This document shows, one piece after another, positions 9,682-59,556 of a stretch of DNA of 64,000 bases. Source of the DNA: Verrucomicrobiota bacterium. GTDB lineage: Bacteria > Verrucomicrobiota > Verrucomicrobiia > Limisphaerales > J093. The notes under the pieces are model-generated. The model made no database searches, was not told where the DNA came from, and worked only from the letters and a program-made list of their open reading frames with translations. Location: the NCBI GenBank assembly GCA_027493615.1, contig JAOSKK010000012.1, forward strand, positions 228,644 to 292,643. The letters run 5' to 3'. The translations under genes were made by a program, and so were the position numbers. The stretch's first letter is position 1; the number at the start of each line of letters is the position of its first letter.

Positions 9682-10368
9682 TCAAGCCGCCAGGCCTTGG
9701 TCGTCCAGACAACTCACGCGGGCGCCGGCGCTGAGCGTCCGCAGGCGCTGGCTGAACTTCTCGAGCTTGCCCACATCCTGGAAGTCCACATGGAACGCCG
9801 CCTCGAGGCACTCGGGCGTTTCGTCCAGACGGCGGAGTCGGGCCCGGGCGCCGGCTGCGGAGAGGGCTTCGAGGATCTGGCCGGCACTGAGCTTGCCGGG
9901 CGCGGGACAGGTCACGGTCAGATGGTAGTTCGGCTGATCGGGCACACGGTGAAAACGGCTGCGCAGTGCCACCAGCATCAGGATCACGACCAGGGCCACT
10001 GCGGTCACGAGGGGTTGTCCGGCACCGAGCCCAAGTCCGATGCCGATGGCCAGGAAGAGGAAGGCGAGTTCCTCCGGTTCCTTGATGGCGGCCCGGAACC
10101 GAACGATTGAGAGGGCGCCCACCAGGCCGAGGGAGAGCGCGAGCGACGATTTCACAATGCTGATGATGAGCGTGGTGGTGACGGTGAGCAGGAGGAAATT
10201 CCGGGCGAAGGCTCGGCGGTTCGAGAGCGATTGGCCGAAGTGGATGTAAGCCTGGCCGAGGAGGAGAGCCAGCAAGGCGGCCAGGATCAGGCTGAGGGCG
10301 AAACCGGGCAGCGAACTGAGCACGGCGGGGTTGTAGAAGAGTTCGCGCAGCGTGGGGTCGATTTGCAT
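9682..10368 (-). CDS. DUF4956 membrane protein
   Basis: SSLALSLGLVGALSIVRFRAAIKEP signature. Confidence 0.9.
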   Translation of the reverse strand: MQIDPTLRELFYNPAVLSSLPGFALSLILAALLALLLGQAYIHFGQSLSNRRAFARNFLLLTVTTTLIISIVKSSLALSLGLVGALSIVRFRAAIKEPEELAFLFLAIGIGLGLGAGQPLVTAVALVVILMLVALRSRFHRVPDQPNYHLTVTCPAPGKLSAGQILEALSAAGARARLRRLDETPECLEAAFHVDFQDVGKLEKFSQRLRTLSAGARVSCLDDQGLAA

Positions 10369-10433
10369 GGGGAGCAGAGCTCTGAGTAAACGGTTCGTGG
10401 TTGGCGATGACTGGTTCAGGGGCAGGGAAATGC

Positions 10434-12735
10434 TCAGCGCGCCGCGGTCACGGAGGGAATGCCGGCGAGCCTTCCGGTCGAAAGGGCGGCTCCATGCTCG
10501 GCGTCGCGCCCCCGACAGGTCCCGGCGGGGGCCAAAGCCCCCGGAAGAAAGCCGAAGCCGCCGGAGGGGCGACCACGGAACGGCGCAAGTTCCTGGTCGA
10601 TGCCGACGCGAAGTTGCGGCTCGGAGAGGCTCCCGCTGCGGTCCTTGTTCCATGCCTCGAACCATCGCTGGAAAGTCTGCACGAACTCCTCGCGCGTAAC
10701 CGAACGGTTCTTGTCAGCATCCGCGGCGGTCAAAAAGGTGGGCCCCACGAACGAGCCCGGGCCGAAACCGCCGGGGTCTCTAGGTCCTCCCCGGTCCGCC
10801 GCCCCCCACGCCCCCCAAAGCCGGGTCCCGAGAGCACCGCGCCTTCCGCACGGCCAGCGAGTTGGTCGATTACCGACCTGGCACGGGCCGTCACAAAGCC
10901 CTTGATAGGCTTCGGTGGCGAGCCGAACCCGCCCGGAAATCCGAACGGCAGGGACGGACCGGTGCCAGCCTCGCTTCCGCGCGGTCCGGCGAACGCCCCA
11001 GCCCCAAGTCCGAACGGGTTCCGGACCACGGGTTCGCCGGCGACGACGCGGTCAAACCGCGCGAGTTTCTCCTCGGACTCGGCCCGCACCGCCGGACGCA
11101 GCACGGCAGCCAACTCGTCCACCTGGCGGTGCAGTCGGTCCGGGTGAAAAATCGTCTCGCTGAACTCGCGGAGGCGGGCCAGGTAGAGTCGCTGGAAGGT
11201 GGGCACGCGAAACACCCGTTCGAGGAACCGGTTCTCGCCCTGCCAGGGTTGGCGGATGCTCAGGGTCTCCCGTTGTTCTTGGGTGCCGACCATCGGGAAC
11301 TGCCCGAACGAGTGGTCCAGATCCCAGGGAATGAAATGGAACTGCCGCGTCATCGGGTGCAAATAGACGAGGTAGTTCTGCCCCACCCCCAGGATGCTGT
11401 CGAGCGTGCTCAGCCACACGGTGACCGCCATGAAGCGGGCAAAAGCGTCGAGATCAAGATAATCGGCCAACCGGGCGGCGAACTCGCCGTCCGCGGCGTG
11501 CGACACCAGGCGGGCGAAGTCGATCACGCGCTGCGTCTCCGCTTTCGAGACCGGGGTCTTGGCGTCGTAGCTCTGCCGGTAAGCGGCCCAGTCGGGCCCG
11601 AGATCCTCAAACAACTGGCGGGTCACCGGCTTGAAGAGCGCGCCCTTCTTGGTCCCGTACCGGTCCGACGCAAAGCTGTTGTCCACATTCTCGACGAGCG
11701 AATACAGGCCGAGATACCGGCGCTCATGCTGGCCGGGCACGGTCAGGAAAACCTCCGCGTAGGCCGTACGCGGGGCGGGCACGCCAGCATCCCGGAACAA
11801 CCGGTGTGAAAGCACCTCGTTCATCCGGCTCGCGTCGGTCACGCAGTTGTGGAGATTGAGCTTGGTGACACCGTCCAGTTTGCGCCCCGGGAACCCGTCA
11901 TTCAGGTCGATCTTCAGCGAGCGTTTGAGCGAACCGCGGGATTCCATGAAAGTCCCGTTGCCCTTGTAGCGCACGGCCACATCCGGGAAATGTGCCCCGG
12001 CGAAATCAAGGTCGGCGCGCACGGTCGGGAAATCCAAACCCAACATGGCGGCAAGGCCATTGCGTTTGCCGTCCGGCCCTGGAGGTTCATGCCCGGCGGA
12101 CGACCACCGGGAGCTTCGAGACGTCCCGGCCCAGGAAGGAAGCCTGCCCCACCCATGCCCGGCGGAGTGAGGATTGCGTTCAGTCCTGCCCGCAGCTTGT
12201 CGCCGTCGAGTGCGCCGGTCCGGTTGGTATCCCACGCCGCGAACCACTTCTCCCCCAACGCAGTAAACTCCGCAGCCGACAACCGCCCGTCGCCGTCGGT
12301 GTCCCCGTGGCTCAAGAACACGGGTGTCAAGAGCAAGGCCGGGCCAAACATGCCCGGACCGGGAGCGCCCGGACCCAAGCCCGGTGGTCCTCCGCCCGGT
12401 CGGCGGAAGGGTCCGAAACCTCCGGCCGGCTCGATGGCTGCCCACTGCTCAGCGGTAAACTCCAGGTGCACCTGCCAGACATTGGTCACTTCGAACAGCC
12501 GGACGGCGCTCTCTGCCCGCGCGGCTGCCGCGCGGACATGGACGTCGCTCGCCGCAACCTCTGCGCCATGAGGTCCGGCGGCCGCCGCGAAGCCGAGGGC
12601 CCAAAGCACAGCAAACCTTCGCGCGCCTTCTCTTGAGGAGAGGTTCCTTCGACACGCGCCCAGGCCCACGAACATCTCCCGTAGTGACGCCTGCGGCGCC
12701 GCGTCCGTTACAGAGTCGTAACCTCCGATGGCCAC
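10434..12735 (-). CDS. CotH kinase family protein with two EF-hand pairs (frameshifts near 12060 and 10760)
   Basis: VRYKGNGT, SLKID, KLNLHN, GLYSLVE, QNYLVY, IPWDLDHSFG; EF-hand-like DTDGDGRLSAAEF and DADKNRSVTREEF. Confidence 0.85.
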
Positions 12736-28905: not shown

Positions 28906-28980
28906 GCCAGGGTAGCTCAGCGGTAGAGCAGGGGACTCATAAGCCCTTGGTCGTGGGTTCGATTCCCTCCCCTGGCACCA
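28906..28980 (+). tRNA. tRNA with CAT anticodon (elongator Met or Ile2), CCA encoded
   Basis: Acceptor stem GCCAGGG/CCCTGGC, D-arm GCTC/GAGC, anticodon loop CTCATAA, T-loop TTCGATT, 3' ACCA. The G1-C72 pair argues against initiator tRNA. Confidence 0.95.
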
Positions 28981-29019: not shown

Positions 29020-29325
29020 TCAGGTGGTTGCCCAGTCCGCACAGAGCAACTCCGCCTCCATCAGTACCGTCTTCACCGCCTCCTCCTGGGCAAGGATGTG
29101 TTCCTGGCCGGCGGGGATGAGCGCCAGCCGCTGAGCCGCGGTGCCCGTGATCCACCTGGCCGAACCGAAGCCGCGGAGCAGGTCGCGGGTGATGCCGTGC
29201 TTCTCGAGCATCACGGCGATGGCATGGCGCGTGTCGAAGGTCGGGTTCCCCTTGCCGCCACTTTCGGTGTACGCGGCGAGGGCGTGCCGCAACTGATCGG
29301 CGAGACCGAGGCAATCCACAACCCT
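29020..29325 (-). pseudogene. hsdR: Internally deleted remnant of type I restriction subunit R
   Basis: VVDCLGLADQLRHALAAYTESGGKG...AGQEHILAQE joined directly to the extreme C-terminal motif EAVKTVLMEAELLCADWA. Confidence 0.7.
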
Positions 29326-29452
29326 GAGGCGAATACGCGGTGCGCGGTAGAATCTCCCGCGGTTCATACTCGGCCAGGGCTCGTCGTGCCTTTGCGGCCG
29401 CGTCGCACAACCCAAAAAGGCCAGCCCGGCCTCTCGCAGGCAACCGCCATCG

Positions 29453-30952
29453 CTATTCTGCCCGCAGCCTCCAGAACCGGGCCGGCACCGCCCCATCAAC
29501 CGGAATCTCAAACACCCGCTCGTCGCCCTCGATGCGCACCTCCGGCTCGCTGGGCGTCCAACCCTCCGCCGGGCTGGCGGACTGTTCGATGACCACTGCG
29601 GAAAGCCCCGCCGGCCAGGCGCACTTGATCTTCGGCGCCAGCCCCGGCCCGGCGCCCGGCGCAAACCAGACCCGCAGGGGGAGCCTCGGCGGCCCCGCAG
29701 AGCCTTCGAGAAGCGTCAGGGCGAGGTTGTCCGCCGCGCCGTCGTTGTACGTCCCGGTGAAGCGACGGAGGCGGATCGTCACCTCGATGGTCCGGGTCCC
29801 CGGCGGCACAGCGCTCTGGTCCTGCTGGAAGATCAACGCCGTCTGGCGGTGGCGTGCGTGGGACGGGAGCGGCCCAAGTTCCATCTGGCCCAAGGGCGTG
29901 CCGTCGGACCGGAAATACCGCGCCGTGACCTGGGCACGGTCCTCATCCTCCGCCGCCACGGCTAGCCAGGCCTCAAGCACCGCCTTCAGACGCCGCTCGT
30001 CAATCATCGGTGCCGCCGCTGCCACATCCACCCATTGCCTCGCCAGGCTGCTCGCACTGTCGGGTCCGCCGACGAAGAGATTGCTCCCCCGGTTCTCCGG
30101 CCCGGGAATATCGCCGGCGAACGGGCTGCCGACGGCGTCGTATCGCAGGGCGGTCAACGCGCCGGTGGTTTCCCAGCCGGCGGGCGCCGCCACGGCCAGC
30201 AAGTCCGCCGCGCCGACGCTGGCTTCGGCACCCGGATTGACCAGCAGATTCCGGTTCAGCACCGTCGAGGGATCGGTTCCGCCCCCTCCGGAGTAAGGGC
30301 GGCTCGAAAAACCACCCTGCCCCTCCCGCACGTTCCAGCGCGCCTCATGCTGCAGGGTCGGCACGCCGCTCACGCTCAGTTCCACCACCGTGAAGGTGAC
30401 GTTACCGAACTGCAGGACAAGGCTCTCCGACGGCGGTTGCCCGGCGTCGCGCGCCTCGACTCCCAACTGGCTGACCAGAACCTCCTGGAGATCGATGCGG
30501 GCGAAAAGGACTGAAGACGGGCTCGGGCGCGTCAACTCGAGACGTGCCTCCCGGAACCGGCGGCCCTGGGCGCAGGCCAGGGCCAGCGTCGGCGACGTTC
30601 GGTCGAGGTGCTTGGTGAGCTGCAGGCCGCCGAACTCGGGACCGCCGGTGCCAAGGCTCGCCAGCCGCACGTGGTCGCGCCAGTCGACCACAAGATCCGC
30701 CAGCGGTCCCGCCGCTCGCATCCCGGCAGTGCCTGGATTCGACAACGCCTGCTCCCAACTCGTGAGTTCGATCCAGTCTTTGTGTTCCTTTTCCGTGGCT
30801 TCGCCCTTGAGGTCGTCAAGCCGGAGGTAAGCCGCGCCCCAAGCCACGCCAAGACCGAGCAGGCCCGTGGCCGCCCACGTCAACGCCGCGAGGCGAACCA
30901 CCCCGGAAGTTCGCGCGGCCTGGCCCTGCCGGAAACGGGAGGCGGATTGCAC
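29453..30952 (-). CDS. Signal-peptide-bearing Hcp domain fused to a jelly-roll/lectin-like domain and a C-terminal beta domain
   Basis: Hydrophobic leader, AYLRLDDLKGEATEKEHKDWIEL, TKHLDRTSPTLALACAQG, IDLQEVLVS, ESLVLQFG; then NLLVNPGAE...VPPGTRTI...DNLALTL; ends RFWRLRAE. Confidence 0.8.
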   Translation of the reverse strand: MQSASRFRQGQAARTSGVVRLAALTWAATGLLGLGVAWGAAYLRLDDLKGEATEKEHKDWIELTSWEQALSNPGTAGMRAAGPLADLVVDWRDHVRLASLGTGGPEFGGLQLTKHLDRTSPTLALACAQGRRFREARLELTRPSPSSVLFARIDLQEVLVSQLGVEARDAGQPPSESLVLQFGNVTFTVVELSVSGVPTLQHEARWNVREGQGGFSSRPYSGGGGTDPSTVLNRNLLVNPGAEASVGAADLLAVAAPAGWETTGALTALRYDAVGSPFAGDIPGPENRGSNLFVGGPDSASSLARQWVDVAAAAPMIDERRLKAVLEAWLAVAAEDEDRAQVTARYFRSDGTPLGQMELGPLPSHARHRQTALIFQQDQSAVPPGTRTIEVTIRLRRFTGTYNDGAADNLALTLLEGSAGPPRLPLRVWFAPGAGPGLAPKIKCAWPAGLSAVVIEQSASPAEGWTPSEPEVRIEGDERVFEIPVDGAVPARFWRLRAE

Positions 30953-30953
30953 T

Positions 30954-31511
30954 TCAACCGCCTTTGTTCTGCTTCAGGTCCCAATACACGGCCACCGGCG
31001 TGTCCAGGGTGCCATCCGCCTTCTGGGCCCTGTAGGTCCAGGTGATCTTCGAGAATTTGAACGTGACAGCGTCGCCGGGCGCGGCACCGTCAGCGGCCGA
31101 ATTCTCCACCCGCGAAACCAGCACGTCCTCCATCTTGATCGTGTAGTACTCCTGCTGTTCTCTCCCCGCCCGCCGCACGGTGAGCAACGCGCTCTTGATG
31201 TGTTCCCCACTCGCGCAGGCCAGGAAGAGCCGCGGGGAGGCCTTGCTCATCCGCGCCGTGATGGCGAAATCCTGGAAGGAAGCCTTCCCTGCGCCGGCGC
31301 CGCCACCCCCCGCGGTGCTCCCCGAGTTCGAAGCCGCCCAGGAGAAGGATCCGAGTTCGATCTCCCCCGGGTGCCTGGCGTCCTGCGATTCGCCCGGGAT
31401 CCCGTCGATCTTGAGAAAATAGTCATCCGCTGCCGACACGGAAGAGGCCCCGGCCAAAGTCAACAGGGCGACGGCGGTGAGCTGGAGCAGTGCGCTCAGC
31501 CTGGTTTTCAT
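30954..31511 (-). CDS. hcp: Hcp (type VI secretion tube family) protein with N-terminal signal peptide
   Basis: MKTRLSALLQLTAVALLTLAGASSVSA leader, then DYFLKIDGIPGESQDARHPGEIEL, GGAGAGKASFQDF, SKASPRLFLACASGEHIK, WDLKQNKG. Confidence 0.9.
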   Translation of the reverse strand: MKTRLSALLQLTAVALLTLAGASSVSAADDYFLKIDGIPGESQDARHPGEIELGSFSWAASNSGSTAGGGGAGAGKASFQDFAITARMSKASPRLFLACASGEHIKSALLTVRRAGREQQEYYTIKMEDVLVSRVENSAADGAAPGDAVTFKFSKITWTYRAQKADGTLDTPVAVYWDLKQNKGG

Positions 31512-31737
31512 GCACGCATCATAGGCTGGGTCGCTTCTTCGTCAAGGGAGGCTCGCGACGCGCATCGTCCTTCGTCCCCGACTCGTCCGCCGGGTGACAG
31601 CACGAGACCGGGTTCCTCGCGCGAGCCACCCGAACGGGCGGACGGCTGGCCTGCCACCGCCGACAGCCCGGAAGCGGCGCTGGCGAGGCTGTTGGCTTGG
31701 ATGGCTTGCATCCTGACCTGCCCCACAAGCCGCGGCG

Positions 31738-31766: not shown

Positions 31767-31779
31767 CATCCCCGTTGCA

Positions 31780-31838
31780 GGCAATGGAGTTTGCCTGACC
31801 GCGTCGCGGCGAACCGCCCTCGGGCTGATGACTCCTAC
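31780..31838 (+). ncRNA. Fluoride riboswitch (crcB motif)
   Basis: GGCAATGGAGTTTGCC...AACCGCCCTCGGGCTGATGACTCCTAC. P1 GGCAA/TTGCC, hairpin GCCC/GGGC and pseudoknot GGAGT/ACTCC fit the known consensus. Confidence 0.92.
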
Positions 31839-31865
31839 CGACTAAATCGAGTCTGGTAGCGAGTC

Positions 31866-32582
31866 ATGGTAACCACAAGTCCAGCCGCCCCGCTGGTGTT
31901 GCCGTTCGTGGGGCGGACCCGAGAGACCGCGGAGCTGCGTCGGCTCCACGCCCTGCAACAACACGCCCTGATCCTGGGTCCGGCGGGGGTGGGCAAGACC
32001 GCCCTCGTCGCGCACCTGCAACCCCAGCTCCGCTTCCTCCAGTGCCCGCACTCGGAACACCTGGGCGAGATCTGCGCCAGCCTTGAGCGGGAGCTGGGCC
32101 TGACGACGGAAGGCTTGCGCCTCGTCGAACGGAAGCCGCGGCTAAGGCAGGCCCTCGCCCAGGCTGGGCGGACCGTGGTGTTGGACGGTGTCGGCTGGAC
32201 GACGCCCAAGCTCTGTTCGTGGCTCGAGACGGTCATGGCACGCACGCCGGTCTGGCTGTGCACGCGCTCCGCCCATCCTTGGGACATCGGACATGCCTGG
32301 AGATTGCTGGTCCGGTTTCAACGGGTGGAACTTCAGGCCTTGCGGGCGGCCGAGACGCAGGCGCTGGTCGAGGCCGTCGTGCAGGGAGGTCTCGTGCCGC
32401 CACAGACGCGGTCGCTCGCCGCCTGGCTCCAGCGGCGGTCCGGCGGCAACCCGCGGAAGCTGTACCAGTTCCTCGCGGAACTGAACTCGGGCCACTACGA
32501 TCTGGACAATCCCCTGGCCTTACGTCGCCTGGAGATGGACCGGCGCATTCACGAAGCCTTTCCCCCGCCGCCGCCGGCATGA
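31866..32582 (+). CDS. Small P-loop (AAA-like) ATPase
   Basis: PFVGR, Walker A GPAGVGKT, Walker B-like VVLDG, SGGNP. Confidence 0.8.
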   Translation: MVTTSPAAPLVLPFVGRTRETAELRRLHALQQHALILGPAGVGKTALVAHLQPQLRFLQCPHSEHLGEICASLERELGLTTEGLRLVERKPRLRQALAQAGRTVVLDGVGWTTPKLCSWLETVMARTPVWLCTRSAHPWDIGHAWRLLVRFQRVELQALRAAETQALVEAVVQGGLVPPQTRSLAAWLQRRSGGNPRKLYQFLAELNSGHYDLDNPLALRRLEMDRRIHEAFPPPPPA

Positions 32583-34580
32583 ACGAGAATCACCAACGAC
32601 ATCTGCTGGTGACGCTGCGCCACCTCGACCACCTGCTGTCGGGTGCCGAGCAGGCCCTGGCCGGATCCCTTTCGCCCTTTGCCGAGTACACGCAGGACTC
32701 AACCCCCGTGCAGCGCCAGGTGGTCCACGATCATATCGAGCGGGTGCGCGCCACCCTGCTTCGGGTCCTGGCGGACCTGGAGCTCCCCGGCCCGCGCCGG
32801 TCTGCGGGGCGCTCTGGGCGGCGCGCGGACAGATCACCTTCGCGTCCATCGCCATCGCGGAGATGGAACCGAAGCGCCTGCGCGGCTACGGTGCCCTCTC
32901 CGAAAGTGACACCCGCAAGGTCGAACGAGCCGTGGCGGAATTGAACGCGGCGCTCGAACCTTTGAGCGCCTTCCTCGACCAGGGACCCGGCGCGGATCTC
33001 CAGGCCCGCCTCGATCGGTTGGAGCAAACCCGCGACGAGGTTCGGCTGGTACGCGAACTGGAGCGGGTCATCACCCACCACGGCCTGGTGGAGTCGCGCG
33101 GCGCCCTCGCCCGCCTGTTGGACCGCATGGAAAACGGCGTCTTCGAGATCGGTCTCTTCGGCCGCGTGAGCTCGGGCAAGTCCTCCCTGCTGAATCACCT
33201 CCTGGGCGGAGAGGTGCTGCCCGTGGGCGTCACGCCCGTCACGGCCGTTCCGACGCGGGTCCGGTACGGTTCCACGCCGCGGGCAGTCATCGAGTTCGCG
33301 ACGCGCAAGCCGGTGCAGGTCGAGCTCGAGCGGTTGGCCGAGTTTGCCACCGAGCAACAGAATCCCGGCAACGCGAAGCACGTCGCGCGCATCGTGGTGG
33401 AAGTGCCTGCCCAACGCCTGCGTGAAGGCGTCCTGTTCGTGGACACGCCCGGCCTCGGCTCGCTGGCCACCGGGGGCGCCGCCGAAACGGTCGCTTACCT
33501 CCCGCGTTGCGACTTGGGCCTGGTGCTGGTGGACGCGGCTTCGACCCTGAGCCACGAAGACCTGGCCCTGCTGCAGGCGCTCGCGCAGGCCGGAGCCCAG
33601 GCCATGCTCCTGGTGAGCAAGGCGGACCTCCTGTCACCGGCCGACCGCGCGCAGGTGGTGACGTATGCCGAGCGCCAGATCGCCGACCAGTTGGGAATCC
33701 GCCTGGGCGTCCATGCCCTGAGCGTCGTCGGTGCCGAGGCCGTGCTCTGCGATCGCTGGTTCACCACTGAACTCGAACCGCTCCTCACCACCCACCGCGA
33801 GCAGGCGGCGCGTTCGCTGAAACGCAAGGTGGGCGCCCTGCGCGAAGCCGTGATCCAAGCCCTCGAAGCGCGCCGTCGGGGCCCGGGCCGGCCCCCCGGA
33901 GCCACGGAAGCTGTGACCGCCTTGCGGAGCGCTGATGCCTGGATCGAAGCGGCAGAGACCGCCTGTGGCAAGCTGGTGAACGAGGTGCCCGACCTTGGCC
34001 CGGCGCTGATTGCCCGCGCGGCAAACGCCTTGGCCGAAGCGTGGCAAACACGCGTGTCGGCGCCTGACGCGTTGGCGGGCCAATGTACCGCCGCCCTTCT
34101 GCATCCCGTCGCCGCCACCACCAGCAGAATGATCGAACGGCTGGAGGACCTCCGCCGGCAGCTCGAGGAGGCCCTGGCAGCCGCACGGCGTGTGCCGGGG
34201 GGCCTTCGAGCCTGGGCGAACCGCTGCCCCGCCCCGCCGGCCTCCCCCTCTTCGACCCCGGACGTCTGCTGTCAGGCGACGACCTGCGCCGGCCACGGCT
34301 GGCGATGCTGGGGTTCGGGAGGGTCCTCCGCCACGGGGCCAGCGTCCGCCTGCAGCGCACCCTCGGCGACCCGTTGAGCTCCCTGCTCCGGCAGCACGGC
34401 CAGCAACTGCGGAAGTGGCTGCGGGAGGAACTCACCGGCTTGAGGGCCGCCTTCCATGCCCAGGCTGACCCGCTCCGTGCAGCGTGGGAGCCCCCGATGG
34501 CGGCGTCTGCCGGCGACACTGCCCCCGCCAGGAGTCTGGAAAGCGACCTTGCCCTCCTGCAACATTGGCCGGGCAGTTGA
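32579..34580 (+). CDS. Bacterial dynamin-like GTPase 1 (frameshifts near 32795 and 34205)
   Basis: G1 GRVSSGKS, G2 LPVGVTPVT, G3 DTPG, G4 SKAD; long helical N- and C-terminal regions. Confidence 0.88.
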
Positions 34581-34594
34581 GGCCGCCTGTCATT

Positions 34595-35722
34595 ATGCGA
34601 ATCCTCATTGTCAGCGACATCCATGGCAACTGGCCCGCCTTGCAGGCGGTTCTGGCCGCGGCGCCGCCCACCGATGAGGTGCTCTGCCTGGGCGACCTGG
34701 TGAACTACGGCCCGCAGCCGGCCGAGTGCGTCGGATGGGCCATGAACCAGGTGGATCGCGACTGGGTGGTCCAGGGCAACCACGACCGCGCGCTGGGCCG
34801 CGGCGAAGACCCCCACTGCTCGGTGGCGTACGCGGCCCTGGCCGCCGCCACCCAAAGTGCCACCGAGGGAATGCTGAACGAGGACATGAAGCGGTTCCTC
34901 GCCAGCCTCGAGCCCCTGCAACGGTTCCAACTGGGCGAGGCCGTCTTCGTGGCCTGCCACGCCGTGCCTTCCGACCCGCTCTACCACTACCTCCCGGACA
35001 TCGGCCCGGTCACGCTGTGGGAGTCGGAGCTCAACGGCGTGGGCTGGCCCGACTTTCTCCTGCTCGGCCACACCCACTTGCCCATGAAAACGCGGTTTCG
35101 CAAGACCCTCGTGGTCAATCCCGGCAGCGTGGGCCAACCCAAGGACGGCGATGCCCGGGCTGCCTACGCCCTATGGGAGGATGGGGACATCACCCTGCAC
35201 CGGACGGCCTACGATATCGAGGCGACCCTCCGGGCCTACGGACGGCTGAACCTGGATCCCCAGATGGTCGCGGTGTTGGCCGAGGTCCTGCGCACCGGCG
35301 GTCATCTGCCTCTGGACCAGACACCCGGCGAACTGCTGCAGACATTCTACCGGCAGCACCCGGACAAGCTCGAAGCCATCTTCTACCTCCAGAAACTCCT
35401 GAACCGACGGGTCGGCCTGGACACCGATCGTCTGGACGATCGCGCCCGCCAGCACTGGACGCTCAACTACTGCCGGGCACTGGTGCAGCAAACCGCCCGG
35501 CTGACCGAGTGCGTGCCGTGGAAGTGGTGGGCCACCTATGAGAAATTCGACAAACCCCATGCCCGCATCGAGATCGCCGAACTGCTGCACCTGGTCATCT
35601 CGCTGGCCCAGGTCCTCGAGCTCACGCCGCAGGAGCTCTTCGAGCTGCACACCAAACAGCATCGGCTCGGCCTGCTCAGCCAGGAACCCACCGGTGGCAC
35701 CCCACCGCCAGCCAAGACTTGA
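34595..35722 (+). CDS. Metallophosphoesterase fused to a degenerate all-alpha (dimeric) dUTPase-like domain
   Basis: SDIHGN, GDLVNYG, GNHD, GHTH, NPGSVGQP; C-terminal WTLNYCRAL...VPWKWW...ARIEIAELLH. Confidence 0.85.
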   Translation: MRILIVSDIHGNWPALQAVLAAAPPTDEVLCLGDLVNYGPQPAECVGWAMNQVDRDWVVQGNHDRALGRGEDPHCSVAYAALAAATQSATEGMLNEDMKRFLASLEPLQRFQLGEAVFVACHAVPSDPLYHYLPDIGPVTLWESELNGVGWPDFLLLGHTHLPMKTRFRKTLVVNPGSVGQPKDGDARAAYALWEDGDITLHRTAYDIEATLRAYGRLNLDPQMVAVLAEVLRTGGHLPLDQTPGELLQTFYRQHPDKLEAIFYLQKLLNRRVGLDTDRLDDRARQHWTLNYCRALVQQTARLTECVPWKWWATYEKFDKPHARIEIAELLHLVISLAQVLELTPQELFELHTKQHRLGLLSQEPTGGTPPPAKT

Positions 35723-35734
35723 GTGAGGTGAGGT

Positions 35735-37455
35735 ATGATGGGACCCCAAGGGATCTTGGATCGCGTGGCGAAGGTCGCCGGAGACTGGCACCTCGCGAAT
35801 CTCCAGCCCCAGATCGCCGCCTGCCGCCGGCAATGGAACGGCCACACGACCATCGACGTCGCCGTCTTCGGACGCTTCAAGGCGGGCAAGAGCTCCTTCC
35901 TCAATCATCTGGCCGGACGCGCCGTGCTCCCCATCGGGGTGGTGCCACTTACCGCAGTCATCACGCGCCTGCGCTACGGGCCGGTGGAGCGCGCCGAGGT
36001 TCGTTTCCTCGACGGAACCCGCCGCGCCATCGCGCTCGAGGAGATTGGCCTCTACGTCGCCGAGAACGAGAACCCCCGCAACCGGAAGCAGGTCGCCGCG
36101 GTCGAGGTCGAGTTGCCCGCCCTCGAGCCGCTCGCGCCGCTCGAGTTTGTGGACACCCCCGGCCTGGGCAGCGCCTTCGCACACAATACCGAGACCGCGA
36201 TGCAATGGCTGCCCAACGTGGGCGCCGCGCTGGTGGCGGTCAGCTCGGATGCACCGCTCTCGGAACGCGATCTGGCCCTCCTGGCGGAACTGCGCCAGCA
36301 CACCCCTAAGATCGCGCTCCTGCTGACCAAGGCCGACCTCCTCACGGAACCGCAACGCGCCGAGGTGCTCACCTTCGTGCGCCAGCAGCTTCGCAGCCCC
36401 CGGCCAACGGCGACCGATCGCGACGCCCCTCCCCCAGCGCCGACGCCAGGTCCGGACCGCCCGACCCCGCCGGGGCGGCCGAAGACGAATGGCCCGTCTT
36501 CTTCTATTCCGTGCGGCCTGGCGAGGACGGCCTGCGGACGGTGCTCGAACGTCAACTGCTGGCCCCCTCATCCAGCACCGCGAGACCGCCGCCGCCCACA
36601 TCGCGCGCCACAAGCTGGATGCGTTGCTTCGCCTGACCCTTGACTACCTCCGGGTGGCGTTGGCCGCCGCCACGCAGGCCGAATCCGCCCGCCAGACGCT
36701 GCAGGAGAAGCTCGCCGAGGAACGCGCCCAATTCGATCTCCTCCGCGCGGAGCTCGGCACGCTGGCGCGTCAGACGTCCACCAGCGCGCTGGACGGGTAT
36801 CTGGCTCGCTTGCTCCCGGTGCAGCAGACGCTCCAGGGGCGGGTCACGCAACGGCTCAGCGAACAACTGCCGCGGTGGGCGCCTGCGTCTGCCGCCCTTG
36901 CTGGCCGCCTGGCGCCAGTGGCTGGGGGAGTTCCTCCAGGCCGAGCTGAGCGAGGTGTCGCGGACCCAACAGGCGATGTTCGTCGCCCCGTTGCACCAGG
37001 TCCGCACCCACCTCACGCGCAGCCTCCGCGCGTTCCACGACCGCCTGGCCGACCACGTGAAGTCGGCCCTCGGGGTGACACTCGCACCGCACGAGTTCCT
37101 CCTCGAGGTCCCGGAGCCAACGGCGCCGCCGGTGGACGTGGCCTTCGCGTTCGACGCGGCCTTCACCACCGCGGTTGCGTTGATCCCCACCACCCTGTTC
37201 CGACGCCCCCTCCAGCGGGTGCTGCTGCGGAAGGCCCGCTACGAGGTCGAAAAGAACCTCTCCCGGCTGGCGGCCGGCTGGCGGGACCGGGTCGCCGGAC
37301 TCATTGACCGGCTGACTCGTGACGCCGAACAACAGGCCCGCGACGAGCTGGGCACGCTGGAGCATACCCTGGCTCAAACCGCCTCCAGCGCCCCGGGCCT
37401 GCGGCAGGTGATCCATGAACTCGAGCAGTTCCAGACCCGACTGCGCACGGAATGA
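35735..37455 (+). CDS. Bacterial dynamin-like GTPase 2 (frameshifts at about 36500-36570 and 36880)
   Basis: G1 GRFKAGKS, G2 LPIGVVPLT, G3 DTPG, G4 TKAD; helical C-terminus EVEKNLSRLA. Confidence 0.88.
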
Positions 37456-57147: not shown

Positions 57148-59556
57148 TCACTGCCGAATCCGGCCGAAGAGCATGGCCGCGTTCGGCGTGAAGGTGTACG
57201 GGCTCGTGGCGCCCGTCACGGTTTGCCACGGACCAAGCACCGTCGGCGCGGCCTCCAGCGTGCCTCCGCCGGCCCACTCGATGGTAACGGTGCCGTCCGT
57301 GTTCCGCCGGACACCGGTGATTTCCGGAGCAGCAGTCGCCGCTGGCGTGAACAGGAGGAAGTCCCAGTCCCCGTTGCGGTCGTTGTACCGGAAGGTCGTG
57401 GGGCCGCCCAGATTGAGCGCCAACACGGTGCTGGTGGTGGCGGCGTCCTTCAGCGGCACGAGGGCATTATTGCCCCAGCCGCCGGGTGCCGATCCGTTGA
57501 AGGCGCCGAGAATGGTCTCGGTCCCGCCGGACACGGTCGCGAGGGTGCCGCCGATGCTGGCATTGGCGTCGCCGTGGGAGAGCCCGGCGTAGACGTTGTA
57601 CGTGCCGGCCGGGATGTTACGCGTGTAGTTGAACCACTGGCTGCTGCCCATCCACCCGATGCGGAAGTTCACGTTCACTTCGCCACCGCCGCGGTCGCGG
57701 TCATTGGCGAAGCTGAAGGGAACCCGCAGCGTGTTGGGATAGCGATAGTAGGGGTTGCTGCTCTCGAAGGGGGCTTTGTAGTCCGTCCCTGCGGTGGCGC
57801 TGAGTCCGGCGTACGCGCCGCCCATGTAGGGCATGATGCTGGCCTCGGCCCTGGTTTGGCCGCCATTGTAGTCGAAGTCCGACGCTTCAATCCAGAAGGT
57901 CGGGGTGGCGGGCAAGCCGACGGCGAAGGTCCAGCTCACCGTGCGGTCGCCGAAGGTCACGTCCACGTTGTAGCTGCTGCCCATGGCGAATCCCGCCGCG
58001 GGCTTGTAACTGATGGTGGTCTCGGTGCCGGACTTGGTCGCCGTGGGGGTCACGGCGGTGCCGTTGATTCTCATCGAAACTGTGTTGACGTCCACCGGGG
58101 TCGAGCCGTCCACCAACACCAGCTTCACCGTGGCGTCGGGGCCGGCACGGCCCGTGCTCCCGGCGGAGTCGAGGCTGCTGCGCCCCGGGGCGAAGCTCTT
58201 GACGTAAGTGGGGCCCGTCGAGTTGATCGGGTACTGGTAGGCCTTGATCGCAGTTGCTCCGGCAATCAAGGGGTCATCCACGTTGATGAGGATCTTGCCC
58301 ATCTGATCGGGCAGGCCGTCCTTGGTGATCTGGAACCATTCAACGTTGTGGCCGCCGCCGCCCTGTTCGAACACCATGCGGAAGGGGTACAGACCGGCCT
58401 GGGTGATCTTGACGCTGAACTTGGTGAAACCCCAGTTGTCAGCGCCGCGTCCACCGTTGTACTCCCCGCAGACGACCGGCAGGGTGTAGGCTTCTTTGCC
58501 GTCACCGACGATGACCCGAAAGCCGTCATCGCTGTTGACGCCCATGTGGTAGGTGCCGGGTTGCAGATCCAGCACCGTGCGGATTTCGAGGGCATAATTG
58601 GCGTTGCCGGTTTCCAGGGTGGCGCTGCCAGGGATGCCGGGCATGTTCGGGGCGGCCGCGCCGCCATACCAGCCGTCGTCAACGAAGTTGCCGATGTTGC
58701 CAGTGGCGCCGTTGTAGTTGATGCCAGCGGTTTCCACATAGGAGCCGCCGGGGCCGGTGAAGGCGGTGAGGTCGGCCGTGTTGGGCCAGCCAAACAAGTT
58801 GTGCACCATGGCTTCGGCGATGGCCGTCGAGTTGCCGGGGCTGTTCTCTGCGGTGGCCCCGTTGTTGAGGATGGCGGTCTGCCAGGTCTTGATGAGGAAG
58901 CCCCGGTTGCCAGTGTTCACATCCGCCGCCTTGAGCGCCATGCTCGGAGGAACCGCCGCTCCACCCGTGACGGTGAAGGTGTTGGAACCGCTATACGAAC
59001 TGGCTCCGTCGGTGAAGGTGACAGTGAGGGTATTGTTGCCCGCCGGGAGCACGCCAGCCGGGGTGTACACCGCCTTGCTCACCTTGCCGCTCTTGGTGAT
59101 CACGGGGGTGACCTCCGAGCCATTGAGCAGCAGCTTGATGTTGCTCACCGCGACGGCGCCGTCGGTGATCTCGACCACGAGAGGTGCGCCCGCCAGGAAC
59201 GGGCGGCCGGAACCGCGCGGGGGATCCACGAAGGACACGGCCGCCGGCATGGGGCCATTGTTGACGGCATAGGCCTTCAGCGCGCCGGGGGTGCCGGTGT
59301 CGTTCACCAGGGCCCTGACGCCATCTTCGTTGATCGCGAAGAACTCGAGGTTCGCCCCGCCCCCGCCTTCCATCCAGATCATCCGGAACCCGAAGGTGCC
59401 CGGCGTCGGGACATAAACCCAGCCCAGGGTATCGGAGGCGCCGCGGCCGTTGTCGAACTGTGCGACGATCGGCGAATTGAGCTGCTCCAACGGATTGGCG
59501 AAGGCGGTCATGCGGAAACCGTCGTCGCTGTTGAAACCCATCTGGTACGACCCTGC
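57148..59556 (-). CDS. Large extracellular protein with PA14-like and CBM-like domains, 5'-truncated
   Basis: Two NSDDGF PA14-type motifs, WIEASDFDY...WFNYTR, and a C-terminal TIEW...LE...GPW...FGRIRQ domain. The frame begins mid-domain (AGSYQMGFNSDDGF) with no signal peptide. Confidence 0.75.
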   Translation of the reverse strand, partial: AGSYQMGFNSDDGFRMTAFANPLEQLNSPIVAQFDNGRGASDTLGWVYVPTPGTFGFRMIWMEGGGGANLEFFAINEDGVRALVNDTGTPGALKAYAVNNGPMPAAVSFVDPPRGSGRPFLAGAPLVVEITDGAVAVSNIKLLLNGSEVTPVITKSGKVSKAVYTPAGVLPAGNNTLTVTFTDGASSYSGSNTFTVTGGAAVPPSMALKAADVNTGNRGFLIKTWQTAILNNGATAENSPGNSTAIAEAMVHNLFGWPNTADLTAFTGPGGSYVETAGINYNGATGNIGNFVDDGWYGGAAAPNMPGIPGSATLETGNANYALEIRTVLDLQPGTYHMGVNSDDGFRVIVGDGKEAYTLPVVCGEYNGGRGADNWGFTKFSVKITQAGLYPFRMVFEQGGGGHNVEWFQITKDGLPDQMGKILINVDDPLIAGATAIKAYQYPINSTGPTYVKSFAPGRSSLDSAGSTGRAGPDATVKLVLVDGSTPVDVNTVSMRINGTAVTPTATKSGTETTISYKPAAGFAMGSSYNVDVTFGDRTVSWTFAVGLPATPTFWIEASDFDYNGGQTRAEASIMPYMGGAYAGLSATAGTDYKAPFESSNPYYRYPNTLRVPFSFANDRDRGGGEVNVNFRIGWMGSSQWFNYTRNIPAGTYNVYAGLSHGDANASIGGTLATVSGGTETILGAFNGSAPGGWGNNALVPLKDAATTSTVLALNLGGPTTFRYNDRNGDWDFLLFTPAATAAPEITGVRRNTDGTVTIEWAGGGTLEAAPTVLGPWQTVTGATSPYTFTPNAAMLFGRIRQ

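Follow-up and report, generated by a model that had tools for sequence, protein, structure and literature searches.

The stretch analysed here (the window, 64,000 nucleotides of contig JAOSKK010000012.1 of a Verrucomicrobiota bacterium) carries two adjacent genes, hcpA and hcpB, whose products belong to the Hcp family of tube proteins of type VI secretion systems (T6SS). Canonical T6SS Hcp is cytoplasmic and leaderless. By comparison of sequences, HcpA and HcpB are Hcp homologues that appear to be exported and independent of the T6SS, both in this organism and across the phylum. At about even odds (a probability of roughly 0.5), hcpA-hcpB is a self-contained cassette whose Sec-exported products would co-assemble, without any T6SS, as a ring dominated by HcpA and tethered at the cell surface by HcpB. 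The features of the pair are as follows.

30954..31511, minus strand: hcpA, 185 amino acids, ATG start; predicted signal peptide followed by a bare Hcp domain
29453..30952, minus strand: hcpB, 499 amino acids, GTG start; predicted signal peptide, divergent Hcp domain, jelly-roll and C-terminal tag domain
31431..31511, minus strand: HcpA leader, codons 1-27, predicted cleavage after residue 27
31032..31418, minus strand: HcpA Hcp domain, residues 32-160, matching positions 1-129 of 129 of PF05638
30836..30952, minus strand: HcpB leader, residues 1-39, delimited by homologue comparison
30308..30829, minus strand: HcpB Hcp domain, about residues 42-215, from PF05638 and solved-structure matches
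29693..30280, minus strand: HcpB jelly-roll, residues 225-420, from an Atlas structure model and profile searches
29456..29680, minus strand: extreme C-terminal beta domain (CTD) of HcpB, about 70 amino acids, common to about 150 other open reading frames (ORFs) of the genome
31518..31545, minus strand: sigma-70-like promoter TTGACG-16 nt-TATGAT, with 7 nt between its end and the hcpA ATG
29424..29441, minus strand: terminator-like hairpin and T run, 12 nt past the hcpB stop
29451..31622, minus strand: conserved cassette, the sole stretch of window positions 19000-42000 that is alignable with the corresponding locus of the nearest congener (L003)

Export leaders of HcpA and HcpB

The two coupled Hcp genes described in the initial annotation of the window were found at exactly the coordinates given there. 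They are co-oriented, with one base between the hcpA stop codon TGA (30954-30956) and the hcpB GTG (30952), and both products match PF05638 (T6SS_HCP; cut-off 23.5 bits). HcpA was matched over the full profile (E 1.8e-39, 135.4 bits) and HcpB in two stretches, the best at 102-188 (E 4.5e-20, 72.7 bits), the match being split by a lineage-specific insertion, a loop of about 25 residues. With TIGR03344, HcpA scored above the cut-off (69.8 bits) and HcpB below it (31.2 bits). A Pfam scan up to E 1 returned no family other than PF05638 for either protein, and neither PF06841 nor PF19266. Among solved structures, the HcpB profile hit Hcp hexamer proteins best, led by PDB 7fcf (E 1.5e-19), and Hcp1 of Pseudomonas aeruginosa (PA0085, PDB 1y12) was also matched. 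PDB 7fcf is an Hcp-type structure that was deposited as 'Fimbrial protein' and contains two sequences, with five chains of one and one of the other.

Residues 1-37 of HcpA read MKTRLSALLQLTAVALLTLAGASSVSAADDYFLKIDG. As judged by inspection and hydropathy, residues 1-27 have the layout of a Sec signal, with a basic start, a hydrophobic core (best 10-residue Kyte-Doolittle mean 2.26) and a small-residue end; canonical leaderless Hcps start exactly where this leader ends. A GTG at hcpA codon 25 could give a canonical-looking N-terminus. The third codon position is G or C (GC3) in 22 of the 27 leader codons (hand count), and GC3 is high across the hcpA-hcpB region, as is usual for coding sequence of this 68% G+C genome. 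Nearly all listed members of a set of 1389 HcpA homologues were 159-172 amino acids long and covered 83-89% of the query. The five close homologues (59-99% identity) have a leader of the same length that is about 59% identical, the mature part being 60% identical. In HcpB, a hydrophobic stretch at residues 21-39 lies ahead of the Hcp core. It was kept in four of five HcpB homologues, the fifth (P0127) having been called only from the Hcp core, and one homologue (P0126, 47% identity) has a leader of its own, with a different sequence and a classical end. A second possible GTG start of hcpB, at codon 18, from which another homologue (P0125) is called, would still include the hydrophobic core.

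The same picture was obtained in the family of the source organism (33 genomes), where, in 17 of 19 Hcp ORFs, an upstream ATG opens a hydrophobic leader whose sequence is unrelated; in most of these, no other start codon precedes the core. The two exceptions are leaderless, one being an orphan (in genome G008) and the other the Hcp adjoining the only TssC gene of the family. In relatives at 24-61% identity, the leaders stay open, indel-free and signal-like. Because leader length and sequence are kept in the close homologues, and leaders persist in these more distant ones, mostly in the absence of an alternative start, they are taken to be real coding sequence. On this comparative evidence, the HcpA and HcpB leaders are genuine, conserved signals of the Sec type. 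The initial annotation had placed a hydrophobic leader just before the Hcp core of both proteins, which the homologues confirm, and had named true starts downstream of the leaders as what could overturn its reading, which the comparative data do not bear out. Two other types of signal were considered and rejected: a lipoprotein anchor (signal peptidase II), as neither leader contains a Cys or is closely followed by one, and a twin-arginine translocation (Tat) signal in HcpB, as there is no twin arginine.

Leaders and T6SS genes across Verrucomicrobiota

The source assembly comprises 7.6 Mb in 39 contigs and is 80.8% complete. The lack of T6SS genes in the 64 kb, noticed before, extends to this whole assembly, in which profile searches returned no match to TssC (PF05943), VgrG/gpD (PF05954), TssB (PF05591) or TssF (PF05947), and in which HcpA and HcpB were the only PF05638 matches. 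A complete T6SS elsewhere in the genome, which the initial annotation had likewise named as able to overturn its reading, was not found in this assembly. The genome-wide check for contractile machines, suggested at the same time, yielded a single system, a cluster resembling an extracellular contractile injection system (eCIS) or a phage tail on contig C38 (about 250-263 kb; loci L009 and L010), which is unlinked to the Hcp pair. It contains genes for a sheath, two gp19-type tube proteins (PF06841), a CIS_tube protein (PF19266), gp25, baseplate J and P2_I; several of its ORFs look split (crude calls).

Of the 33 family genomes, 10 gave Hcp matches and a single one a TssC match. The phylum-wide sample consists of 401 evenly sampled Verrucomicrobiota genomes, which are at least 85% complete apart from the genome of the window, itself included. 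PF05638 was matched in 30 of these genomes and TssC in 19; both occurred in 17, Hcp without TssC in 13 and TssC without PF05638 in two. All 50 Hcp matches were inspected for an in-frame leader, with the following outcome.

TssC-positive genomes: 26 Hcp ORFs, 25 leaderless, 1 leader-bearing
TssC-negative genomes: 24 Hcp ORFs, 0 leaderless, 23 with a clear leader, 1 ambiguous

The contrast between the two groups is larger than chance would produce. Most of the 25 leaderless Hcps begin with a 5-residue stub of the MAFxx type, whereas the lone leader-bearing Hcp of the TssC-positive genomes is encoded 98 kb away from the T6SS. The ambiguous case (G289a) has an in-frame hydrophobic stretch, inside which its only canonical start codon falls. 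Apart from the source genome, the sample holds 12 leader-Hcp genomes that are 91-100% complete and gave no TssC match. PF06841 was present in 9 of the 401 genomes and in two of the 13 that are Hcp-positive and TssC-negative, so that the leader-Hcps are not tied to eCIS. The survey of signal-peptide-bearing Hcp homologues that had been suggested thus shows them to recur across Verrucomicrobiota genomes that lack a TssC match.

In a quick IQ-TREE analysis of 63 Verrucomicrobiota Hcp domains, the leader label was strongly clustered, requiring four changes (none of 500 shuffles was as low), of which the well-supported branches force one only; a FastTree of 134 rows gave 25 leader changes, with labels that are noisy heuristics. 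In the trees, the small and the large Hcp of a pair are mutual closest relatives in several genomes (G032, G349, G001 and G395), and HcpA of the window sits among canonical-like Hcps, distant from HcpB (29% identity between the two Hcp domains). The tree positions suggest repeated duplication or replacement within the gene pair.

The wider family was explored by a full HMMER scan with HcpA, which returned 11527 proteins at E up to 0.001, and the best 150 representatives were inspected. Among these, 45 have exactly six tandem Hcp domains and five have five (within the series P0128-P0208). The six-domain proteins, of about 900-3600 amino acids, look like single-chain pseudo-hexamers, which argues for the closed hexamer as the working unit of the fold, exported forms included. 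Fifteen of the 50 multi-domain proteins carry an N-terminal motif of the LExRxLL[SA] type; in about 20, the chain opens at once with an Hcp domain, and long extensions are present at the C-terminus. Among the 71 single-domain representatives, 45 have an N-terminal extension, mostly a hydrophobic segment and a linker, two of them with twin arginines on inspection. The latter (P0231 and P0275) combine the twin arginines with a hydrophobic N-terminal stretch and are Tat-like in appearance. Other representatives have collagen-like or Pro/Thr-rich linkers between the membrane segment and the Hcp domain.

The two-gene cassette and the tail of HcpB

The arrangement seen in the window recurs as a module in which a small leader-Hcp (167-216 amino acids) precedes a larger fusion protein, itself a leader-Hcp (271 to over 1300 amino acids). 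It was found in 18 genomes, eight of the family, nine of the phylum sample and that of the cultured Haloferula luteola YC6886, and the order was small to large in 18/18 pairs, with genes that often overlap or nearly touch. In H. luteola YC6886, a leader-Hcp gene, which extends to 10474, is followed by one for a leader-Hcp-TSP3-CTD protein at 10479-11321 (L005, about 9900-11321); the genome has exactly two Hcp matches, both in the module, and no TssC. At 20 other pair loci, the neighbours are unrelated housekeeping genes, with no conserved gene for a T6SS, usher, sortase, secretin or assembly component, and no chaperone-usher or pilus assembly gene was found at these loci or in the flanks of the window. 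Within the hcpA-hcpB cassette itself, there is no cargo or partner gene.

When positions 19-42 kb of the window were compared with the 22-kb locus of the congener, only 29451-31622 aligned (2174 bp, 90%), which corresponds exactly to promoter, hcpA and hcpB, whereas the flanks were unrelated. With only these elements alignable, the pair behaves as a cassette; its edges have no terminal repeats. Two genomes have, beside the leader-Hcp gene, a separate gene for the tag-bearing partner, which is a TSP3 protein. The coordinates of this variant layout, in which a secreted TSP3 and CTD protein without Hcp domain lies just upstream of the leader-Hcp, are:

L089 6127-7698 (G113)
L088 6123-7583 (G359)

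The leader-Hcp of this layout belongs to another subtype, and tag and Hcp domain reside on separate polypeptides.

The promoter of hcpA is kept in the congener locus. Two promoter-like sites occur in 3.4 kb, compared with 0.2 expected from shuffles, and the distance of 7 nt between promoter end and ATG implies a very short or absent 5' leader of the transcript. A centroid fold shows the terminator hairpin past hcpB, with an overall folding energy that does not surpass that of shuffles (z 0.01). At least half of the sampled words of the sequence were present in 18 runs, which come from nine studies on activated sludge, wastewater and bioreactors. A metatranscriptome contig of 2352 nt, identical to the window over 29112-31463, spans both hcpA and hcpB; as an RNA contig, it says nothing of transcript ends or expression level. 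Together with the 1-nt gap, the promoter and the terminator-like site, it speaks for an operon. Two small RNA-labelled libraries contain pieces of hcpA. The flanks are patchily covered in the metatranscriptome, and their uncovered parts (run X5) are not evidence of silence.

The tail of HcpB consists of the jelly-roll and the CTD. The initial annotation had recognised a jelly-roll and a C-terminal beta domain, and the Atlas structure model and profile searches support both. The model of residues 225-420 aligns with unnamed jelly-rolls at template-modelling (TM) scores of 0.55-0.69, and its neighbours by Atlas features (score 0.92) are Verrucomicrobiota clusters of the HpiC1-like type. When six homologues were combined in a profile, the FBA domain of FBXO44 was the only match, a weak one (E 0.014) over about 150 residues from a shared N-terminal motif onward; Pfam FBA matched one of the six members, again weakly (E 0.17). 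Glycan binding by this domain is accordingly to be treated as a lead and not as a finding. In related genomes, giant IPT/TIG-repeat proteins and a phosphodiesterase terminate in the same jelly-roll. Cadherin, Big_9 and TSP3 domains occur in further HcpB-type proteins, and profile scans of the HcpB extensions returned cadherin, Ig, TSP3 and jelly-roll domains only, with no toxin or enzyme family.

Eleven other HcpB-type proteins have ends that align with the last 70 or so residues of HcpB, often after TSP3 calcium-binding repeats, and the consensus ends in ...RFYRV..P. A hidden Markov model of this CTD, iterated three times over the six-frame ORFs of the source genome, matched 165 ORFs, in 151 of which the match ends within 25 amino acids of the stop codon; HcpB itself was recovered at E 1.8e-6 by a model built from the other ORFs. 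Sixteen carriers were scanned, 14 of which contain LTD, CotH, laminin-G, cohesin, carbohydrate-binding module (CBM), Calx-beta, PKD, cadherin or Ig domains, while two have no Pfam match; over the CTD itself, none of the 16 gave a Pfam match. Searches with CTD segments up to E 1 returned TSP3 repeats only (14 segments with Pfam, 11 with NCBIfam), and a profile search of the PDB gave weak Fn3-like and CBM hints only (E 0.0026 or weaker). By structure, the Atlas places the CTD next to the C-terminal ends of many enzymes from Verrucomicrobiota (TM 0.77-0.84); one Atlas row carries the name PF28696. From its position and the proteins that carry it, we infer that the CTD behaves like a C-terminal sorting or anchoring tag, and Verrucomicrobiota may use it as such. 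A 797-amino-acid ORF of the window (57148..59541, minus strand) is also closed by a CTD.

The cassette has the following surroundings. A tRNA-Met gene lies at 28906..28980 (plus strand), 470 nt downstream of the cassette. The DNA contigs of the run that holds the sequence best break at this gene, with very high word depth, so that the tRNA is repeated in the community or the genome; no tRNA adjoins the cassette in the congener locus. On the other side, a fluoride riboswitch (RF01734; 52 bits, gathering threshold 34, E 8.8e-13) at 31771..31844 (plus strand) lies directly upstream of an ORF (31866..32582) with weak AAA_16/AAA_22/NACHT-like matches only, which is followed by genes for two dynamin-like GTPases and a metallophosphatase (32863..36643). 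Such an ORF, dynamin-like GTPases and a metallophosphatase are an unusual set for a fluoride riboswitch.

Possible roles and comparison with known systems

In the proposed mechanism, HcpA and HcpB would be exported by the Sec pathway, with cleavage of their leaders. Mature HcpA and the Hcp domain of HcpB could then co-assemble in the periplasm into an Hcp-type ring, probably a hetero-hexamer dominated by HcpA. The C-terminal tag of HcpB would direct or tether the ring to the cell surface, possibly via a secretin channel; several secretin loci are present in the source genome, so outer-membrane channels for folded proteins exist. At the surface, the HcpB jelly-roll may bind a glycan, and the product would be a surface or extracellular ring scaffold rather than a projectile. 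An extracellular destination of HcpB is favoured by the cadherin, Big_9 and TSP3 domains of its counterparts and by the predicted extracellular proteins that share its CTD, and joint production of the two proteins by the fixed small-to-large order and the close spacing of the genes. The earlier proposal of a Sec-exported major subunit with an adhesin or anchor subunit is in part retained: the Sec-type leaders and T6SS independence agree with it and the tag-like CTD fits an anchor, whereas the adhesin function has only the weak likeness to FBXO44 in its favour.

Several observations weigh against a surface-tethered mixed ring. The nearest congener (G003) has a T6SS (TssC) and, together with the 80.8% completeness of the source assembly, this means that the absence of a T6SS from the source genome is not proven. 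The hydrophobic core of the HcpB leader is only moderate (best 10-residue Kyte-Doolittle mean 1.73), and an identity of 29% between the two Hcp domains need not permit a mixed ring. The bridging RNA contig can neither prove a single transcript nor exclude DNA carry-over, the idea of glycan binding goes back to one weak match (FBXO44, E 0.014), and the role given to the CTD derives only from its position and the accompanying proteins.

Four other explanations were weighed against the surface-tethered ring. In the first, which is unlikely, the pair is an exported binding module, either a chaperone or carrier of the envelope or a sponge for the Hcp-dependent effectors of attackers, with HcpB as the tether. 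In the T6SS, small proteins are bound in the lumen of the Hcp ring, and Hcp rings are reported to bind effectors (PMC8262886, PMC13035841). A defensive or carrier function would also suit a module found for the most part where the genome has no T6SS of its own (13 of the 30 Hcp-positive genomes lack TssC) and an organism of dense communities, whose sequence was recovered from activated sludge and wastewater runs. It is, however, purely inferential, and the cassette offers no cargo or partner gene that would speak for it.

It is distinctly unlikely that the exported rings are stacked head-to-tail to form a tube or a fibre resembling a pilus, with HcpA as the major subunit and HcpB at the tip or base. 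Hcp rings do form the T6SS tube, the layout of a major and a minor subunit gene (18/18 pairs) resembles that of pilus operons, and the best solved match of HcpB carries the name 'Fimbrial protein', which is a label only. Polymerisation of the T6SS tube, however, needs baseplate, spike and sheath, none of which was found encoded here; the pairs have no conserved neighbour of the usher, sortase or assembly type, and the existence of single chains with exactly six Hcp domains points to closed rings over open polymers.

A third explanation holds that HcpB is a secreted 'evolved Hcp' effector, in which Hcp serves as the carrier of a C-terminal active domain and HcpA as a helper. Toxin fusions to N-terminal HCP1 domains are mentioned in one source (PMC3482391), and the C-terminal regions of HcpB-type proteins are very variable (276 to over 1300 amino acids). 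Nevertheless, none of the HcpB extensions contains a toxin or enzyme family, and the place downstream of hcpB is taken by the terminator-like site and the tRNA-Met gene rather than by an immunity-like gene. As the known evolved Hcps are, moreover, leaderless and T6SS-dependent, an effector role appears quite improbable.

Mis-called starts, which would turn HcpA and HcpB into ordinary tube subunits of a T6SS or eCIS encoded elsewhere in the incomplete genome, are largely excluded by the comparative data and very improbable, for although the assembly is partial, the congener has TssC, codon 25 of hcpA is a GTG and an eCIS-like cluster is present on contig C38, the leaders are maintained in distant relatives mostly without an alternative start, the T6SS of the congener has its own leaderless Hcp adjoining TssC, the pair occurs without TssC in genomes of 91-100% completeness, the eCIS cluster is supplied with tube genes of its own (PF06841 twice, PF19266), with 11 of the 13 leader-Hcp genomes lacking PF06841, and the hcpA promoter ends 7 nt before the ATG.

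Beyond the single cassette, it is tentatively suggested, at odds well below even, that exported Hcps (exported by Sec and in some lineages seemingly by Tat) might constitute a large unrecognised sister branch of the family that builds extracytoplasmic closed rings, the two-gene module being one form and the six-domain chains another, and that the CTD might mark an undescribed sorting route of Verrucomicrobiota. A phage-tail-tube fold appears to have been relocated across the inner membrane. Hcp commonly serves as a T6SS marker, and the source annotations name HcpA homologues 'type VI secretion system tube protein Hcp'; such annotations are misleading, since 13 of 30 Hcp-positive genomes lack TssC and their Hcps are predicted to be exported. 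The distribution of leaders, absent beside T6SS genes and present elsewhere, provides a natural contrast for studying the function of the fold without a sheath. H. luteola YC6886 is a ready experimental system, because it is cultured, non-pathogenic and has the module, two Hcp matches only and no TssC. Two leads arise in addition, namely the abundant C-terminal tag, which may define a sorting pathway of Verrucomicrobiota, and the single-chain six-domain Hcps.

The Hcp fold and family are known, whereas the cellular place, the T6SS independence, the two-gene layout and the tag are without description in the literature searched. In full-text searches, at abstract level, no paper turned up on an Hcp with a signal peptide, on six-domain Hcps or on PDB 7fcf.

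Among known systems, the CTD of the type IX secretion system (T9SS) of Bacteroidota and PEP-CTERM are C-terminal sorting domains of secreted proteins. The CTD of HcpB resembles them as a short, extreme C-terminal domain on many varied, predicted extracellular proteins of one genome, but differs in having neither a transmembrane tail nor a match in the Pfam, NCBIfam and PDB collections searched. The similarity of the HcpB jelly-roll to FBA, HpiC1-like and DUF642 jelly-rolls is weak throughout (E 0.014, E 0.17). Several Hcp paralogues encoded together, with mixed rings proposed, are described in three reports on the T6SS of Bacteroidales (PMC13035841, PMC13213661, bioRxiv 10.1101/2025.01.09.632221). 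Those hetero-hexamers belong to a T6SS and are cytoplasmic, whereas the mixed ring of HcpA and HcpB is a conjecture and would form after Sec export. The tube proteins of eCIS and phage tails (PF06841, PF19266) share the broad tail-tube fold class with HcpA and HcpB, which match PF05638 only and are encoded on another contig than the C38 cluster. Evolved Hcps and Hcp-toxin fusions share with HcpB an Hcp domain and a variable C-terminal extension; HcpB differs from them in its leader, its jelly-roll and its sorting-type CTD, and no toxin family, immunity gene or T6SS was found with it. The closest relative is Hcp/TssD of the T6SS itself (P. aeruginosa Hcp1), a member of the same fold family, and HcpA is 54-62% identical to canonical Hcps of 160-162 amino acids. 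Hcp/TssD is nonetheless a cytoplasmic, leaderless protein, whereas HcpA and HcpB, for which no T6SS core genes were found, are distinguished by Sec-type leaders, a stand-alone cassette and partner domains of an extracellular type.

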